Source: Terriglobia bacterium (GTDB lineage: Bacteria > Acidobacteriota > Terriglobia > 20CM-2-55-15). From it: a stretch of DNA of 64,000 nt. The notes beneath the pieces are model-generated. The model was not told where the DNA came from. It searched no databases and saw only the letters and a list, made by a program, of their open reading frames with translations. How positions within the stretch are numbered: the stretch's first letter is position 1; each line of letters begins with the position of its first letter. This document shows positions 276-8,578 of this stretch, one piece after another. The stretch is from contig DASXLG010000304.1 in assembly GCA_036496425.1 (NCBI GenBank), positions 7,919 through 71,918 on the forward strand, given 5' to 3'. The position numbers were made by a program, and so were the translations under genes.

Positions 276-851
276 TTATGCAGCGCGCTTCTTTTTTGTG
301 ACCTGGTCCATGACCGTTTCGAATGCCGCGCCGGCCGTCCGGACAGCCCGAGTCAAAAGGCCCGCTTGAAGTTGCATTTTGCGTTCCTGCATCTGTCTGC
401 CGAGTTCGCGGAGCTTTTCATCACCAATGGCCCTGCGGGCTTTCGGAAACATCTGCGACTCTTCTTCTTCGGCGTGATGATCGATAAGATCTTTCAGCAC
501 CTTCGCCTTGGCGCTGAATTCCTCAGACTCAACAGTGGTGGATTTGATTTCGGGTAATACGATGTCGACCAGATGATGTTCTTCCAGCGCCTCGAAATAA
601 AGGTGCCCGTCCGGCTTCCGCACCGCTGCTTTATAGGCCGGATAGAAAATTTCCTCTTCGATCTGAGTGTGCATCTTGATTTCGGTTTCGACCTCTTTCA
701 ATAGCGCTTCGCGCCGGCTGCCGGCTCTCTCCGTCGTTCGGTCCAGAGAGCTGAGCAAACGTTTCACCTTCCGGTGATCCTGAACCAAAAGGCTAATTGC
801 ATTAACAGCCCGGGCCGGGCGCCTCCTGCTTGTCTTCGAACCAGATGGCAT
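276..851 (-). CDS. Hemerythrin-like (HHE cation-binding) domain protein
   Basis: 191-aa ORF with spaced His/Glu motifs (LLVQDHRKV..., EHHLVD..., DLIDHHAEEEE) typical of hemerythrin-like metal-binding domains. Confidence 0.55.
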   Translation of the reverse strand: MPSGSKTSRRRPARAVNAISLLVQDHRKVKRLLSSLDRTTERAGSRREALLKEVETEIKMHTQIEEEIFYPAYKAAVRKPDGHLYFEALEEHHLVDIVLPEIKSTTVESEEFSAKAKVLKDLIDHHAEEEESQMFPKARRAIGDEKLRELGRQMQERKMQLQAGLLTRAVRTAGAAFETVMDQVTKKKRAA

Positions 852-960
852 CTATATTCCCTCCTAGTGTTGAAATGGACGCGTGGAACCTTGCACGCAG
901 GTTGCCGAAGCGCTCGAGCTACTGCATACGCGCACAGCGGGCTCGAGCACGCAGAACGGC

Positions 961-1971
961 CTACCGGAAATTGACGGAACGCTGGGAACGCAAGAAAGCT
1001 GCGATCGGATCGAGCTGCGTGGCTCCGCCGATATTCCAGCGGAGAAGGACGCTCGAGGCATCGATTGGAAGCGATGCGATATTACCCACGTACTTCGCAC
1101 GGGCTTGAATGTAGTCTTCAACATTTGAAATGTAGAAGACGTGCACCGTTGCACCATGATCCTTCAGGTATTGACCGACGGCTCGAATCGCCTTCGGGCC
1201 GGCGAAGTCGCCCACCAGCGGCACAATCCGATTCTGCTGCTGCATAAGGCGGACCCGGTCATAGTTTTCCTTCGTTGCGAGATAAGCCCAGTTTTTACCG
1301 CGGCCGTCGGTGAGCGTCATTAATGTTGCATAGCCCGGGCTGAGGAAGCTCGAGTTGAAGAGTTCGACGCCTTCCCCCGCGAACGTCCGGAAAAGAGTAC
1401 GGATTCCGCGTTCATCCTCGGCCGTCAGCGCGAAATGATGCCGCGTCTTCAAGCGATCCACGATCAAGTTGGCGTTTTTCGCGGCGAGCGCCGGATCGGC
1501 CGGCACACGCGCGAACGCTTCAAAGATCGTTGCAACAGGACTATCGCCGGTCAACTGGGGCGGGGCTCTCCTTGAAAAAAGATTCGCGACGAATTCCACG
1601 CGGTTTGCAGACATCTCGAAGACGCATTTGTACATCAGGTGTTCCAGCATCATTTCGCGCCGGATATCGAAGATGAACGCGATCTTCGGTTGCACTGCCG
1701 CGATATAGGTGAAGTTCTGTTCCGGTCCAACGCCGAGGTACGCCCCGCCGGCGCGCGGTGTCTTCATGAGGTCGGGAAGAGAATGCTGATAGGTCAGCTC
1801 GTTCGATGTGACGACGTTGTATTGATAATATCCGGCGGGTTCAGAGAAATCGTTGATCATCTTCCAATATTCCGCGTCGCTTAACTGAGGCGGCAGCGTT
1901 TCCGCAGATAAAACGATCTGCAGCAACACGAGACAAACCGTTATGACGGATAGCCAGCAGCGAAGGCGCAT
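961..1971 (-). CDS. Secreted protein of unknown function; paralog of 49303..50229
   Basis: The track ORF 961..2439 has a GC-frame N-extension. The start is reassigned to MRLRCWLSVITVCLVLLQIVLSAETLPPQLSD (ATG = revcomp 1969-1971), which gives a signal peptide. Shares blocks ETLP-QLSD-E-WK, GVGPEQNFTYI, IFDIRR, VGDFAGPKAIRAVGQYLKD, SNVE with the ORF at 49303..50229. Confidence 0.6.
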   Translation of the reverse strand: MRLRCWLSVITVCLVLLQIVLSAETLPPQLSDAEYWKMINDFSEPAGYYQYNVVTSNELTYQHSLPDLMKTPRAGGAYLGVGPEQNFTYIAAVQPKIAFIFDIRREMMLEHLMYKCVFEMSANRVEFVANLFSRRAPPQLTGDSPVATIFEAFARVPADPALAAKNANLIVDRLKTRHHFALTAEDERGIRTLFRTFAGEGVELFNSSFLSPGYATLMTLTDGRGKNWAYLATKENYDRVRLMQQQNRIVPLVGDFAGPKAIRAVGQYLKDHGATVHVFYISNVEDYIQARAKYVGNIASLPIDASSVLLRWNIGGATQLDPIAAFLRSQRSVNFR

Positions 1972-1990
1972 TTTTAGAGACCTCACAGCT

Positions 1991-3838
1991 TTATTCCAGG
2001 CCGAGTTCGCCGCAGCGCCGGCGAAACGATGTAGGGTGCCAGCCGAGGCGGCGGGCTGCTTCCGCCCGGTTCCTGCCGGTCTCGCGAAGGATTCGTTCGA
2101 AAAGGGATTTCTGAAAGGCGTCGAACTCCCGGTCATACAGCGTCCCGCCGTGCGCAGCCGTGGAATCGGAAGGCGCCCGGACCTCTTTAGGCAGATCTTC
2201 CGGCAGGATGTAGGGCGTCGCACCCATCGAAATTGCCCACTCGATCGCGTTTTCGAGTTCGCGAACATTGCCGGGCCAGCCGTACGCGCCGAGCAATCGA
2301 TGGGCTTCAGGGCTGATTCCCGCGACTTCGGGATACGGCGCGCACCGGATGCTCCGGTGCTTGCGGACGAAATGTGCGGCCAGTTCCGGAATGTCTTCGC
2401 GGCGTTGGGCAAGGGAGGGCATCTGGAGTGGGAGAACATTCAGCCGGTAAAACAAGTCCTCCCGGAAACGCCCCTTCTGGACTTCTTCGCGCAGGTCGCG
2501 GTTTGTCGCCGCGATGATCCGCACGTCCACTTTGATCGGAGTGTGCGAGCCGAGCCGTTTGACTTCGCCTTCCTGAATGACGCGCAGAAGATCCACCTGC
2601 ATGTTCAGTGGAAGTTCGCCGATTTCATCCAGAAAGACCGTGCAGCCGTCGGCGTCCTCGAATAGCCCTTTCCGCTGGGCGACCGCGCCCGTGAACGCGC
2701 CGCGTTCATACCCGAACAGCTCGCTTTGCAGCAGGCTTTCGCTGAACGCACCGCAATTGACCGCAATGAGGCGTTTCGGCGCCCGCGGGCTGTTGCGGTG
2801 AATCGCATACGCCACCAGTTCCTTACCCGTACCACTGGGGCCGATGATCAGAACAGGCCGCTCGCCTGGACCCGCGCGGCCGATGAAGGCATACACCTCC
2901 TTCATTCGTTCACTCCTGCCGATCATCCCGTGCTCCGCGTAAAGCATTTCGGTCAGGCGGCGGTTTTCGGTTTCGAGCCATGTGACGTATCGCAGGTGCT
3001 CGAGGGCGACGGCCGTCGACGCAGCGACCGATTCCAGCACCGCGATGTGGCCGGCGGTGAACCATTCGGCGCCCGCCTGCGCCATCGCGGCGTAGATGAC
3101 GCCCACCCTGGTGTCGAAAGCCGTCATCGGATAACAGACCGCCTTGTCTGTGTAATTCGGAATGCCTTCGCGAAGAACTCTGACAGCGGCCGCTTCATCG
3201 ACCGGAAATGCATCGCCGTTGCGCGATCCCAGGCTGCGGTAAGTGGACGAAACGAAGCGGTCCTGCTCGTGGCCCGCCATCAGGATTGCCGCCCGGTCGA
3301 CCGGCATGACCTCAAAGATGAAATCGAGCGCGCGCCCCTGGATTTCCTCCGCCTTGCGGATCGCATTGATCGAAGCGTGCAGCTGCAAAACCGCGGAGAG
3401 GGTCGTTCCTTTTGCGGCTTCGTAGTGTCCGGCGCGATCCGGCGGGTAGTTATCGTAGCACCAGCGCCGCTCGGCCGGCGTGAACTGCAGCAGCGATGCA
3501 TCCACCTGGTCATGCAGAAGGTAAACGAAGATCGAACGGCCGATCCGAATGTGGTCGCCGTGATCCGCGAACTTCCCGGGAAAGGAGAATTCGTTCACAA
3601 ATGTCCCGTGCTCGCTGCAGCAGTCCAGAACCATGCAACGATCCTCTTCGAACGTGATGCTGCAATGCTTGAGCGATACGAGCGGATCTTTCAGAGAAAT
3701 GTGATTGCGCGCTCCGCGCCCGATGTCGAGCTTCGATTTACCTAGCGGAAATTCCATGCCCTCGAATTCGCCGGCAATACCCAGAAGTCGCGGATTCATG
3801 ATGCCGGACATGCTAGTGGAATACAGAGTCTCGCGCAC
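1991..3838 (-). CDS. Sigma-54-dependent transcriptional activator (bacterial enhancer-binding protein) with N-terminal FHA-like and GAF-like regions, an AAA+ sigma-54 interaction domain and a C-terminal Fis-type HTH
   Basis: GPSGTGKE Walker A, GAFTGA sigma-54 contact motif, EDLFYRLNV, WPGNVRELEN, C-terminal HTH (AARRLGWHPTSFRRR); N-terminal ~100 aa resembles an FHA domain. Confidence 0.9.
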   Translation of the reverse strand: MRETLYSTSMSGIMNPRLLGIAGEFEGMEFPLGKSKLDIGRGARNHISLKDPLVSLKHCSITFEEDRCMVLDCCSEHGTFVNEFSFPGKFADHGDHIRIGRSIFVYLLHDQVDASLLQFTPAERRWCYDNYPPDRAGHYEAAKGTTLSAVLQLHASINAIRKAEEIQGRALDFIFEVMPVDRAAILMAGHEQDRFVSSTYRSLGSRNGDAFPVDEAAAVRVLREGIPNYTDKAVCYPMTAFDTRVGVIYAAMAQAGAEWFTAGHIAVLESVAASTAVALEHLRYVTWLETENRRLTEMLYAEHGMIGRSERMKEVYAFIGRAGPGERPVLIIGPSGTGKELVAYAIHRNSPRAPKRLIAVNCGAFSESLLQSELFGYERGAFTGAVAQRKGLFEDADGCTVFLDEIGELPLNMQVDLLRVIQEGEVKRLGSHTPIKVDVRIIAATNRDLREEVQKGRFREDLFYRLNVLPLQMPSLAQRREDIPELAAHFVRKHRSIRCAPYPEVAGISPEAHRLLGAYGWPGNVRELENAIEWAISMGATPYILPEDLPKEVRAPSDSTAAHGGTLYDREFDAFQKSLFERILRETGRNRAEAARRLGWHPTSFRRRCGELGLE

Positions 3839-3845
3839 GAGAAAA

Positions 3846-4260
3846 ACGCGTGCAGTGCTGGAAATGGCTTAGCAGCGTTGCATCCCCGATTCCAGCGCCG
3901 GAAATGGTTGAGCAGTGCTGCACCGCCGATTGCTGTGTAGGAAATGATTGAGCAGTGTTGCATCGGCGATTGCAGTGCAGCAGAAGATTCAGCAGTGCTG
4001 CATCCCCGGTTGCAAGGCGGCAAATGGTTCAGCAGCGCTGCATCGCCGATTGCAGTGAAGCAAACGATTTAGCAATGCTGCATCGCCCGTTGCAGCACTG
4101 CAAATGCCGGAGCAGCCTTGCAGCCTGCTTTGCGCCGCTGCAAAAGGTTTAGCAGTACTGCTTCGGCAGATGCAGCGCAGCATCCGGTTTTGCAACGCTG
4201 CATCGGCAATAGCAGTCTTGGAAATGATTCTGCAGCACTGCATCGCCATTTCCCGGATAA
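3846..4260. repeat. Tandem array of ~10 degenerate copies of a 40-bp unit (approx. GAAATGGTTGAGCAGTGCTGCATCGCCGATTGCAGTGCAG); non-coding minisatellite in a divergent intergenic region
   Basis: Units phased exactly every 40 bp from 3861 to 4260 (a partial unit at 3846-3860); all positions are similarly conserved, so there is no spacer alternation. Both strands carry short mirror ORFs with repeated peptides, which are artefacts. Confidence 0.85.
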
Positions 4261-4291
4261 CAAACACCGACGGGGTGCGTCGGCGCTATTT

Positions 4292-4330
4292 CGCAACCTA
4301 CAGGTTGCGGACCGCAACCTGTAGGTTGCG
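4292..4330. promoter_or_regulatory. Two adjacent 18-bp palindromes, CGCAACCTACAGGTTGCG-GAC-CGCAACCTGTAGGTTGCG; candidate enhancer/UAS or operator
   Basis: Each element has perfect 8-bp arms around a 2-nt centre, and the two are reverse complements of each other. They lie ~75 bp upstream of a candidate sigma-54 -24 element and ~150 bp upstream of the FN3 gene start. Confidence 0.45.
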
Positions 4331-4404
4331 GTCGTCGAAAGCCTTTCCCATCCCCGGGCCTTGCAAGTTATTGATTTTTAAAGAATGGCATCCGGGCGCG
4401 TGAA

Positions 4405-4420
4405 TGGCACAGCGCGTGCG
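4405..4420 (+). promoter_or_regulatory. Candidate sigma-54 (-24/-12) promoter, TGGCAC-N5-GTGC, upstream of the FN3-domain gene
   Basis: Perfect -24 TGGCAC, 5-nt spacer, and a -12 GTGC that keeps the conserved GC. It sits 60 bp upstream of the ATG at 4480, and a sigma-54 activator gene lies divergently. Confidence 0.35.
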
Positions 4421-4479
4421 ATATAGGACGGCGTTCGTTGGAATTCAATCGCGGGGCGGTCCCGCAGAAAGGAGGGAAT

Positions 4480-5121
4480 ATGACAAAGACAATACCGATC
4501 AAAGCCTTGCTGGGTTTCAGGAGAAACTCAGCGAATGATGTACTCGCCCGGGTAAACGCCGTTCTCGGCGGGGTATTCACCGATACGGTCGACTATCCCA
4601 ACCCGTCTATCGATCTGGCGACGCTGAAATCGCAAGCCGATGCACTGTCGGCCGGCATTTCGGCGGCGTTGGACGGCGGCAAGAGAGCCATTGCCGAACG
4701 GGAACATCAGAAGGAGATCGTGATCAAGTCGTTGCGTCAAATCGGACACTACGTCGAGGAGAACTGCAAGGACGACATGACGATCTTCCTGAAGAGCGGA
4801 TACGACGTGGTCTCCACGACACGTGTTCCGGTTGCTCCGTTGTCGGATTCGATCCGCAAGATCGTTCCGGCCAACAACAGCGGCCAGATGCTCGTAACGC
4901 TCATCGCTCAGGCGGCCGCGCTCAGCTATGTTTTGCGCTGGGCTCCGGTCGCTGCGGGCGGGATGCCGGGAAACTGGACCGAGCAGCCGGTGGGCACCAC
5001 ACGCCCGCCGGCGCTGGTAACCGGTTTGACGCCGGGCACGGCCTACGCTTTCCAGGTCCGTGCCGTCACGAAGGCCGGTTATACCGACTGGCGTGAGTCC
5101 GTCACGCGGATCGCGATCTAG
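4480..5121 (+). CDS. Hypothetical protein with a C-terminal fibronectin type III-like domain
   Basis: The track ORF 4438..5121 is trimmed to MTKTIPIK, which has an RBS (GGAGGGAATATG). C-terminal LTPGTAYAFQVRAVTKAGYTDW is an FN3-like signature. No signal peptide. Confidence 0.65.
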   Translation: MTKTIPIKALLGFRRNSANDVLARVNAVLGGVFTDTVDYPNPSIDLATLKSQADALSAGISAALDGGKRAIAEREHQKEIVIKSLRQIGHYVEENCKDDMTIFLKSGYDVVSTTRVPVAPLSDSIRKIVPANNSGQMLVTLIAQAAALSYVLRWAPVAAGGMPGNWTEQPVGTTRPPALVTGLTPGTAYAFQVRAVTKAGYTDWRESVTRIAI

Positions 5122-5131
5122 ATCCGTTTGA

Positions 5132-5177
5132 CATGTTAGAGGGGAGCGGGTGTGCACGCCCGCTTCCCTCTAACATG
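5132..5177 (+). terminator. Long GC-rich hairpin (~21-bp stem, 2 mismatches / G:U) immediately 3' of the FN3 gene; putative terminator without a clear U-tract
   Basis: CATGTTAGAGGGGAGCGGGTG-TG-CACGCCCGCTTCCCTCTAACATG starting 11 nt after the stop codon. Confidence 0.45.
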
Positions 5178-5213
5178 CACAGGTTCCGCCTCTTGCCAAG
5201 CCATCGTGGCGAA

Positions 5214-5586
5214 CTATTCCGCGGACTGATTGTTGGCACCCTCACTGGGTTCGACCCGGCCGAGCGCCTCATCGGTTGCGAGCTCCAAGTCATCAAGTTC
5301 GTCTTGCGAGAGCATTCGGATCTTCGCCTGTAGTGCCGATTTTGGAATCGCTCTCAACTGAAACGCGAGTGCAACAGAGTCTTCTCGTGGGCCATCCTCA
5401 GAAGCGAGGATCAAAGCAGTGCCAGCCAGGTTGGCTCTTTCGAGATTGGTTGTGAGGAATGACAAGAACGGATTGAAGAACGTTTGTTAACGTGTCGCTT
5501 TGCCAGATGATGACAGGCCGCCGACCCATTTGCTCGCGCGGTCGGTATGCTCCAAGATCTGCCCACCAGACTTCGCCTCGATTCAA
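5214..5586 (-). pseudogene. MazF/PemK-family mRNA interferase toxin, disrupted by a single frameshift
   Basis: ORF 5398..5586 (MNRGEVWWADLGAYRPREQMGRRPVIIWQSD...VLVIP) matches the MazF N-terminus. ORF 5214..5465 in another frame (TTNLERANLAGTALIL...REDSVALAFQLRAIPKSAL) matches the MazF C-terminus. Span 373 nt (372 + 1 nt). Confidence 0.6.
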
Positions 5587-5808
5587 TTATTGATCCTCTT
5601 CATCAAGGCTGGCAGACCAACTCGCAAGGCCGTCTTCGGCGAGATCCAGATCTTCCGTGGTCGCCGCCTTTCGAAAACGCTCGAGATCCCAGCGTTTAGG
5701 ATCCGGCTGCCGAACGATAATCAGATTCACGCGTTCACCTGAACGGAGCGGTAAAGGCTTTGTGGGCCTCAGCACTCCCTTTTCATAATGAGCTTCGACA
5801 AGTTTCAT
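5587..5808 (-). CDS. Putative antitoxin (DUF104-like small protein) upstream of the MazF-like toxin
   Basis: MKLVEAHYEKGVLRPTKPLPLRSGERVNLIIV resembles DUF104 antitoxin-like proteins. Its stop abuts the toxin start. The track ORF 5587..5904 is trimmed to the internal Met. Confidence 0.5.
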   Translation of the reverse strand: MKLVEAHYEKGVLRPTKPLPLRSGERVNLIIVRQPDPKRWDLERFRKAATTEDLDLAEDGLASWSASLDEEDQ

Positions 5809-5909
5809 TGAATTTATGCTATCACGGGCAACCACAGATCTGTTGTCCGATGGATATTGTGATTCTGTATTCGAAAAGGTGCAGAAATTTCCGAATTCCG
5901 TCAAACGCC

Positions 5910-6376
5910 GAATTCACCTCGAATCACGCCTGCCTATGGGCAGTTCTGGATAATTCGGTGTCTGTCCCCGGAATTCGAAATGCCGAGAAGGCGGAAGAAA
6001 TCGCCGTCGACTTCGTGACCGAGGCGGAATTGGAGCGGTATGTTCGGACCTTCGCGAATGCGGCGTTGACATAATCCATCGCGGCAAGGTCGGAGAAGGA
6101 TCGCGTGTTCCGGCAGAAATCGTCGAACTCGGGATAGGACATCGAGGATTCGCCGATCCCGCGAACCGGGAAGAACTGACGGCGGCGCCGATCATTCGGA
6201 GCGTGACGACTTGGGAAGGGTTGGGAACCGGGAGCGGCCGGAAGACCAGGCCGTTTGCGACGCTGAAGATGACGGAATTCGCGCCGATTGCCAACGCGAT
6301 GGAAGAGCTCTGCGGTCATGGCAAAGCCCGGAGATTGCCAGAGGGCGCGGAGGGCAAATTTGAAATCATTCAGCAT
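5910..6376 (-). pseudogene. 5' remnant of an ADOP-type (FtsX/MacB-like) ABC transporter permease gene; about 150 codons with two frameshifts, then truncated
   Basis: ORF 5924..6376 begins MLNDFKFALRALWQSPGF (characteristic ADOP N-terminus). ORF 5914..6294 in another frame holds IGANSVIFSVANGLVFRPLPVPNP. SYPEFDDFCRNTRSFSDLAA returns in the first frame. A full-length ADOP gene is ~2.4 kb. Confidence 0.5.
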
Positions 6377-6392
6377 CGGGGCATGATAACCG

Positions 6393-6553
6393 ATCGGGTC
6401 ATTGGGTCATCTGGTCAGGTACATGTGACGTTCGACATTGGACATTTCACATATGACATATGGGAAACCGTCCCCAATGTCACATGTCAAACGTCCCATG
6501 TCGAACGTCAAATGTACTTGACCAGATGACCCAACCACCAGATAACCCAATCC
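6393..6553. repeat. ~160-bp near-perfect palindromic element (MITE/REP-like) with ~35-bp terminal inverted repeats and internal GACAT / CACATGT repeats
   Basis: GGGTCATCTGGTCAGGTACATGTGACGTTCGACAT ... ATGTCGAACGTCAAATGTACTTGACCAGATGACCC (2 mismatches). The track ORFs 6203..6529(+) and 6407..6619(-) both end in ...MYLTR, which is a palindrome artefact. Confidence 0.6.
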
Positions 6554-8493: not shown

Positions 8494-8578
8494 ATATTGG
8501 AAATTCGAAATTGGAGGTTGGAAATTGAAATCGGATTTCCAATTTCGGATTTCCAATTTCGAATCTCCAATAGGTCTT
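8494..8578 (+). terminator. AT-rich compound hairpin element directly after the ankyrin gene stop; member of a 3-copy family with ends TTGGAAATT...AATCTCCAATAGGTCTT
   Basis: ~70% AT in a ~60% GC context. Stems TTGGAAAT/ATTTCCAA. The same termini are seen at 15094..15179, and related ones at 55803..55897. Confidence 0.5.

Follow-up and report, generated by a model that had tools for sequence, protein, structure and literature searches.

Phased palindrome arrays ahead of an FN3 protein family suggest an undescribed regulatory DNA element in soil Acidobacteria

Known bacterial σ54 enhancers, among them the multi-site NtrC enhancer of glnAp2, comprise about 2–5 sites within ~150 bp of the promoter. 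Plasmid iterons are repeats of ~17–22 bp set at about two helical turns, with their proteins on one face; they are few, direct and asymmetric Rep-monomer sites that adjoin a rep gene and an AT-rich origin. The parC centromere of pSK41 is built from 20-bp repeats. Pneumococcal BOX elements, with their variable boxB number, and enterobacterial REP/BIME sequences are intergenic palindromic tandem modules that can influence neighbouring genes, and upstream of ctxAB, at a σ70 promoter, ToxR binds TTTTGAT heptads, 3–8 direct 7-bp repeats whose copy number depends on the strain. In the sopC centromere of the F plasmid a 43-bp unit is present in 12 copies, every one of which contains an inverted repeat of 16 bp (PMC3177203), and LuxO sites mapped by ChIP-seq, such as ttgcaatttgcaa, have the form TTGCA-N3-TGCAA (PMC10328515). 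Our literature search returned nothing relevant on arrays of the kind described below, on tandem σ54 enhancers in Acidobacteria, or on a chromosomal single-subunit RNA polymerase together with an FN3 protein.

The array studied here lies in a 64,000-nucleotide stretch of DNA from a Terriglobia bacterium (the window), part of a JGI soil-metagenome contig that belongs to a MAG of this Acidobacteriota class, between a σ54 activator gene and a gene for an FN3-domain protein. Its design resembles multi-site enhancers, centromere arrays and iterons, and is that of a phased multi-operator array. With the σ54 enhancers (NtrC, LuxO at the qrr genes, NorR) the locus shares palindromic candidate sites for an HTH_8 activator, a −24/−12 promoter, a putative IHF-type bend and whole-turn spacing, but the array differs in that its 20 sites lie at about −185 to −585, are added to a canonical site pair and have a motif that assorts independently. 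As in the partition centromeres (F sopC; pSK41 and R1 parC), which a dimeric protein binds to build a large nucleoprotein complex, tandem repeats contain inverted repeats; unlike in these, no parA/parB or parM/parR genes are found nearby in the window, similarity to plasmid records is absent, and a genome contains several arrays, all of them associated with an FN3 gene and promoter. The phasing is that of iterons, whereas the array holds 20 dyads and is accompanied by no rep gene. A partition centromere or iteron origin is further contradicted by the immediate neighbours, the activator and FN3 genes, and by the presence of several FN3 copies per MAG, many of them preceded by an array. BOX and REP/BIME elements are dispersed copies of one sequence in tens to hundreds, whereas the array is lineage-specific, single in 64 kb and tied to one gene family. 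The ToxR heptads, which are sites for an activator, likewise repeat in tandem ahead of a target promoter; the present array differs by its ~20 dyads, its two-turn spacing and its position distal to a σ54 enhancer.

In its best register the array occupies positions 3847–4246 (unstranded), where ten 40-bp units follow one another in exact phase and divide into 20 slots of 20 bp, B-type and A-type palindromes alternating, as determined by Tandem Repeats Finder, autocorrelation, a repeat search and the printed register. A first-pass annotation of the window had placed ten exactly phased 40-bp copies at 3861–4260; phase and copy number are retained, and the best fit lies 14 bp further left. Tandem Repeats Finder, the check suggested there, recovered the repeat with periods of 40, 80 and 120 from position 3851 (scores 239–303). 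The repeat search yielded nine in-register copies at a step of exactly 40 bp across 3811–4250, and the autocorrelation of the array reaches 0.66 at lags of 40, 80 and 120, compared with 0.44 at a lag of 20. With up to three mismatches allowed, a unit-derived 24-mer matched six times, all within the array at 40-bp steps, compared with no match in 100 shuffles.

Each 40-bp unit is made of two alternating palindromes of 12–14 bp, so that 20 dyad sites stand exactly 20 bp apart. Type A reads AGCAGyrCTGCw (TTyAGCAGyrCTGCw with its 5′ flank) and type B TTsCAGnnyWGsAA (CGaTTsCAGnnyWGsAA with its 5′ flank), and the CAGnnYTG core recurs along the window array at exact 20-bp steps. By motif match, the best B site is the perfect 14-bp palindrome TTGCAGCACTGCAA at 4090–4103 and the best A site the perfect 12-bp palindrome AGCAGTACTGCT at 4151–4162 (both unstranded). 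Each unit had previously been assigned one internal dyad, GCTGCATCG-C-CGATTGCAG; related arrays instead pick out the two alternating 12–14-bp palindromes with centres 20 bp apart. The idea of helically phased dyad sites is upheld in its anatomy and revised in number and spacing, from 10 sites at 40 bp to 20 at 20 bp. Nor are the columns uniformly conserved, as had been stated: the half-sites are nearly invariant, whereas the central dinucleotide and the spacers vary, a pattern as in operators for dimers. The sites are also asymmetric between strands, with T at position 11 in 28 of 77 compared with A at position 8 in 6 of 77, which counts against a purely symmetric operator, as this would not predict asymmetry.

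Several familiar classes of repeat do not account for this structure. In agreement with the first-pass annotation, the array is not a CRISPR, since all 40 columns repeat and unique spacers are absent, and it is non-coding: the period is 40, all six frames of four related arrays contain stops (1–5 per frame), the longest open frame varies by locus and no frame is conserved. A 92-aa gene call in the JGI record (3989–4267, minus strand), an open frame through the repeat, is probably spurious. A fragment of a dispersed IS or MITE, raised initially as a refuting finding, can be discounted on the scale of the 64-kb window, which contains no second copy; scans of the window with the 24-mer and with the A- and B-site motifs found the unit nowhere else. 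Blastn of the array and promoter region against plasmid and phage collections gave no match, and an Rfam scan of 3500–4800 returned nothing near threshold, the best hit, on the UAS palindromes, scoring 25.5 bits where the gathering threshold is 90. The proposal of a variable-number repeat that tunes the flanking promoters fits less well. Because the window units are merely 0.68 identical to one another, frequent copy-number switching is unsupported for this array, and two independent metagenome assemblies contain the region in identical form, unlike a contingency locus or hypervariable VNTR; copy number nevertheless differs among sister-clade relatives. A third contig (L005) matches until it ends inside the array; short-read assemblies break within such arrays, as contigs L005, L076, L079, L082, L100, L109 and L133 do.

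To the left, the gene at 1991–3811 (minus strand) encodes a σ54 enhancer-binding protein of the order FHA–GAF–Sigma54_activat AAA+–HTH_8, originally annotated as an FHA–GAF σ54 enhancer-binding protein and now supported by Pfam domains (Sigma54_activat 8.4e-69, FHA 3.6e-12, HTH_8 3.8e-05; GAF_3 stayed under the Pfam cutoff). Its start is the ATG at 3811 according to the public gene call, although the reading frame can be extended to a GTG at 3838; JGI contigs record a product of 606 aa. This ATG is separated by 35 bp from the array, and a σ70 promoter scan of the intergenic region returned no site; the promoter of the activator gene thus has to be located within the array or past it. Further out, left of the window (L001 13045–19504), a stress and DNA-repair neighbourhood comprises genes for hemerythrin, a BON protein, two Ku proteins, LigD and a eukaryote-type topoisomerase IB.

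To the right, the FN3 gene (4480–5121, plus strand) encodes a protein of 213 aa with an N-terminal three-helix domain, assigned with confidence, and a C-terminal FN3 domain. Ahead of it, repeat and motif searches identified two 19-bp palindromes, CGCAACCTACAGGTTGCGG at 4292–4310 and CGCAACCTGTAGGTTGCGG at 4313–4331 (both unstranded), centred ~130 and ~108 bp ahead of the inferred transcription start, which fits the ~80–150 bp expected of σ54 activator sites. One is the reverse complement of the other, with a spacing of 21 bp, and their junction, TTGCG-GAC-CGCAA, is itself a 13-bp dyad. The pair is common to ~30 loci, always at 21-bp spacing and at a fixed distance to the ATG. The typical candidate activator sites are this separate pair, and not the array, which had been suggested as a possible set of binding sites. 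An IHF-like match, AATCAATAACTTG (consensus WATCAANNNNTTR), at 4364–4376 on the minus strand was read from the sequence and is partly conserved in the alignment; we tentatively take it as an IHF-like site between activator sites and promoter. The σ54-type −24/−12 promoter TGGCACAGCGCGTGC at 4405–4419 (plus strand; GG 4406–4407, GC 4418–4419) is kept in 27 loci at −75 to −79 from the ATG. The alignment also reveals a conserved 5′-UTR hairpin, GCGGG...CCCGC (4451–4465, plus strand), directly followed by a strong Shine–Dalgarno sequence, AGGAGG (4470–4475). Behind the FN3 stop, a 46-bp near-perfect inverted repeat (5132–5177, unstranded) is terminator-like, so that the gene forms a monocistronic cassette.

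Judged by its motifs, the stretch 4292–4475 is laid out as a textbook σ54 promoter region with the palindrome pair as predicted enhancer sites, and the conserved TGGCAC-N5-GTGC promoter and the two palindromes upstream of it support the early suggestion that the FN3 gene is a plausible target. Placed at about −185 to −585, distal to the canonical pair, the array constitutes an additional distal module of the FN3 gene's own self-contained control region of ~650 bp. Two further repeats lie downstream in the window. Upstream of an ankyrin-repeat gene, 6390–6545 is an imperfect inverted repeat of ~150 bp, GGGTCATCTGGTCAGGTACAT ... ATGTACTTGACCAGATGACCC, rich in short GACAT/ATGTC, with a similar GACATTCGACATGGGACATTTGAC stretch at ~1600–1650 of L009; it may be a lineage-specific repeat element. 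Palindromic 7/14/21-bp repeats at 8496–8571 (TTGGAAATTCGAAAT ... ATTTCGGATTTCCAA), between the ankyrin-repeat and UbiD-family genes, look like a terminator.

FN3 homologues on other contigs, 79–83% identical, carry the same proximal module and an array of 360–400 bp in the same place. As L006 and L009 have no nearby activator gene, the array goes with the FN3 cassette and is not a feature of the activator gene. In four diverged arrays (window, L006, L007 and L009) the CAGnnYTG core fills 18–20 slots, each array stays in a single exact 20-bp register from end to end, free of phase shifts, and units within an array are 0.61–0.68 identical. Positional orthology of units between these four arrays was not found, and identity within an array is slightly higher than between arrays. 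The linker from array to activator sites measures 16, 62, 64 or 83 bp, and a fixed helical phase between the two was rejected on this ground.

In the L011 sister clade the A site is TGCTGnnCAGCA, compared with AGCAGnnCTGCw in the window clade; both half-sites have changed together. Arrays of this clade hold 9–23 slots, with 80-bp units that match at 82–97%, and among close relatives the intergenic lengths differ by ~60, 80 and 140 bp, that is, in steps of ~20 bp. All four pairings of activator-site type with array type are represented (window, L011, L087 and L098), and L100 has the same activator sites beside an unrelated 41-bp array. The close relatives L070 and L087 share promoter and 5′ UTR; L087 has activator sites and an array of 7–8 sites, whereas L070 has neither, and its homology to L087 breaks at the IHF-like site. 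L086 and L096 contain a second array (794–1003 and 1377–1944; 21/42 bp) of TTGCAGnnCTGCAA palindromes resembling the window B site, ~2.3 kb upstream of the proximal L011-type array, with fragments of an IS91-family transposase in between.

The finding is more general than the window alone showed. Scanning GTDB genomes and JGI metagenomes with an alignment of the FN3 protein returned ~100 full-length homologues, often several per MAG. At least ten FN3 subfamilies carry upstream arrays whose unit sequences are unrelated, and yet the base period is always 20, 20.5 (41 or 123) or 21 (42) bp. Those arrays whose units were examined are built of palindromes, and in several the symmetry is perfect up to and including the centre (GAGAAGATCTTCTC, TTGCTCATGAGCAA, TGACGGCCGTCA). 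Within 1.5 kb upstream of FN3, long arrays are ~17-fold denser than in the remainder of the retrieved DNA (42 in 118 kb compared with 11 in 524 kb). Related soil samples have contributed many near-duplicate loci, so that locus counts overstate independence. Of the 11 outliers, six sit at a remove of one gene, next to the gene that adjoins FN3: five of these precede the AAA_22 ATPase gene, which itself lies upstream of FN3, and the sixth is found past the 3′ end of the polymerase gene described below. Two apparently intact FN3 homologues, L019 and L070, have no array in the retrieved flanking DNA, and the array of the L090 group is separated from FN3 by the intervening polymerase gene; a proximal array is therefore dispensable.

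In two FN3 subfamilies the place of the activator is taken by a divergently transcribed, full-length T7-like single-subunit RNA polymerase (PF00940 7.5e-103 plus RPOL_N), which is 35% identical over 99% of its length to enzymes of Autographiviridae phages and is flanked by ordinary chromosomal genes. Comparison of the FN3 family with IMG/VR viral contigs returned no relatives, and its N-terminal domain had no match among phages; the FN3 cassette is accordingly not viral. The polymerase gene was located at 1334–3808 (minus strand) in L090 and also in L088, L091, L092 and L101, and in a second set at 804–3215 (minus strand) in L140 and also in L137, L139, L142 and L144. Between polymerase gene and FN3 lies a conserved element of ~35 bp, ATTGTCACArATA...TTGGAAkAGAGAGC (L090 3829–3866, L140 3311–3347), which loosely resembles promoters of the T7/T3 class. 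It is situated upstream of the array in L140, and the L140 array might be transcribed.

A gene for an AAA_22/AAA_16 ATPase of ~800–950 aa directly precedes FN3 in one subfamily (L015 3467–5824, L115 ~1400–3787, and L114, L116, L147, L110–L112, L117, L123, L130, L132 and L148). In L015, L114, L115, L116 and L147 a 20- or 41-bp array is placed just upstream of the ATPase gene and not beside FN3. L009 contains a 650-bp array of 41-bp units (GCTGACAGTTTTCAAGTTTCAGGTTGCAATCCGGCCGTGCA) at 535–1192, ~5 kb from its FN3 gene. It starts right after a DUF3738 gene and has a copy of a 15-bp direct repeat, AAATCCTTAGTCGAG, on either side (520 and 1229); an interruption of the DUF3738 coding sequence was rejected, since homology stops before the array. 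In L027 (~5140–5990) the FN3 ATG is preceded, at a distance of 836 bp, by a σ54-like promoter, TGGAACGCGGGATGC, and a 21-bp GAGAAGATCTTCTC array occupies the interval. A heptad-repeat (EKIFS) reading frame through this array was dismissed as a palindrome artefact, as long mirror-image frames run on both strands. Because the sole recognisable promoter-like element lies upstream of the array in L027, and possibly in L140, the position of array relative to promoter may vary. Distant FN3 homologues (L013, L015, L016, L017, L018, L021, L107–L118 and L140) have a long conserved leader ~60–230 bp upstream of the ATG, composed of a GGGGAGAAGGtCCGGnnGCCCTTCTC hairpin followed by TTTTCCACGCGCCGG and AAACCGTTAAC; it is absent from the window and may be an undescribed RNA motif.

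Taken at the level of sequence, these results suggest that the arrays are an undescribed regulatory DNA element that precedes this FN3 family across soil Acidobacteria. Their anatomy, conservation pattern, linkage to FN3 units and constant period across unrelated units are direct observations. Our leading explanation, to which we assign a probability of roughly 0.45, is that the array is a lattice of sites on one face, where a dimeric protein, probably not the activator, binds cooperatively and modulates the cassette, covering at this locus the promoter region of the activator gene. A spacing of 20 bp, about two helical turns, puts the sites on or near one face of the DNA. As the dyads are kept despite sequence change, the half-sites are conserved, the lattice is free of indels and the period is two turns, binding of a dimer is the best explanation; that a protein binds, which protein it would be and in which direction it would act are inferences. 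A sequence-specific dimer would bind cooperatively along the 20-site lattice and form a nucleoprotein filament or wrap upstream of the activator sites, the IHF-like site and the σ54 promoter. This filament would set the readiness of the cassette to fire, be it as a threshold, by insulation or by architectural help. The array here, starting so close to the activator gene, must also overlie, or be crossed by, the activator promoter, which would couple regulator and target.

The activator is the obvious rival ligand. Extending the enhancer, the array would then offer lower-affinity sites that store or concentrate activator dimers beside the two strong sites and template several hexamers, which we regard as unlikely. 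The array does lie directly upstream of the activator sites; its B site, TTGCA-GYRC-TGCAA, has the architecture of the LuxO site with one extra spacer base (PMC10328515); the window B half-site GATTGCAG matches the activator half GGTTGCGG at 6/8 positions; and the recognition helix reads WH-PT-SFRRR in one clade versus WH-QN-SFRRR in another, tracking the DNA differences. However, sister arrays use TTCCAG and CAGCAG half-sites and keep GGTTGCG activator sites, array type is independent of activator-site type, as the unrelated array of L100 illustrates, and arrays are present in FN3 units that lack a σ54 promoter and stand beside the T7-like RNA polymerase. Those other half-sites, the independent assortment, L100 and the polymerase-linked arrays favour a separate binder, probably one other than the HTH of the activator to judge from the motifs. 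Clustering of neighbouring ORFs for a linked binder recovered the activator, the RNA polymerase and the AAA_22 ATPase as the sole recurrent genes, none of them consistently linked; arrays occur in FN3 units linked to either of the latter two. Against the lattice with its own binder stand the cognate specificity that every array family would require, the variable phase between array and activator sites, and the dispensability of the proximal array. Less likely than the activator as ligand, and rather improbable in our view, is a largely neutral or selfish minisatellite, in which an ancestral palindrome pair with 21-bp spacing was amplified, the period is inherited through unit-wise turnover and the array survives with no role of its own. 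Such an origin would accommodate the range of 7 to 23 sites among relatives, the array-less L019 and L070, the slightly higher identity within than between arrays without positional orthology, and 41- and 21-bp arrays elsewhere (L009 535–1192 with its 15-bp direct-repeat flanks, L086 794–1003 with adjoining IS91 fragments). Neutral drift would, however, erode dyad symmetry, which is kept in many sequence-unrelated families; moreover, the spacers are far less conserved than the half-sites, the four arrays show no phase shift despite ~35% substitution divergence between units, and arrays are strongly enriched 5′ of FN3 units.

An effect of the array as RNA, transcribed as a leader or a separate molecule and acting via repeated hairpins, appears very unlikely. 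Predicted folding exceeds that of shuffles (z = −4.7), and a σ54-like promoter in L027 and a conserved promoter-like element in L140 precede the array; yet folding is just as strong for the opposite strand (z = −4.5), pairing is predicted over long range and not in local hairpins, half-site changes are mostly single and uncompensated, and the palindromes continue through their centres. In addition, the conserved promoter of the window sits downstream of the array, and an Rfam match is absent. Most improbable of all is autoregulation, with the FN3 protein binding its own upstream array via the N-terminal helical domain. Although the array type diversifies along with the FN3 subfamily and FN3 is the sole constant neighbour, common descent explains this co-diversification equally well, and the N-terminal domain is near-neutral (pI 7.9) and a three-helix bundle in which no DNA-binding fold or family was detected. 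We thus prefer a separate binder, followed in order by the activator enhancer, the neutral satellite, the role as RNA and FN3 autoregulation.

A wider reading extends the lattice with a separate binder to the whole family, and we regard it as doubtful. The arrays would represent a new cis-regulatory class of sequence-diverse lattices, with ~10–30 dyads spaced by two turns and marking FN3 units on their 5′ side, whether these are served by a σ54 activator, a T7-like RNA polymerase or an AAA_22 ATPase; their filament-forming binders would come from an unrecognised protein family and act as a bacterial super-enhancer or insulator. Being short and modular, the array is directly testable in reporters. 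A conserved phased lattice of ~20 dyads that recurs, in unrelated sequences, before one gene family in an abundant but little-studied soil phylum would indicate a novel form of promoter control, possibly by cooperative filaments, insulation or thresholding, and would also imply a new family of DNA-binding proteins. It highlights, too, a multi-copy FN3 protein that is transcribed by dedicated machinery, including a chromosomal T7-like RNA polymerase.
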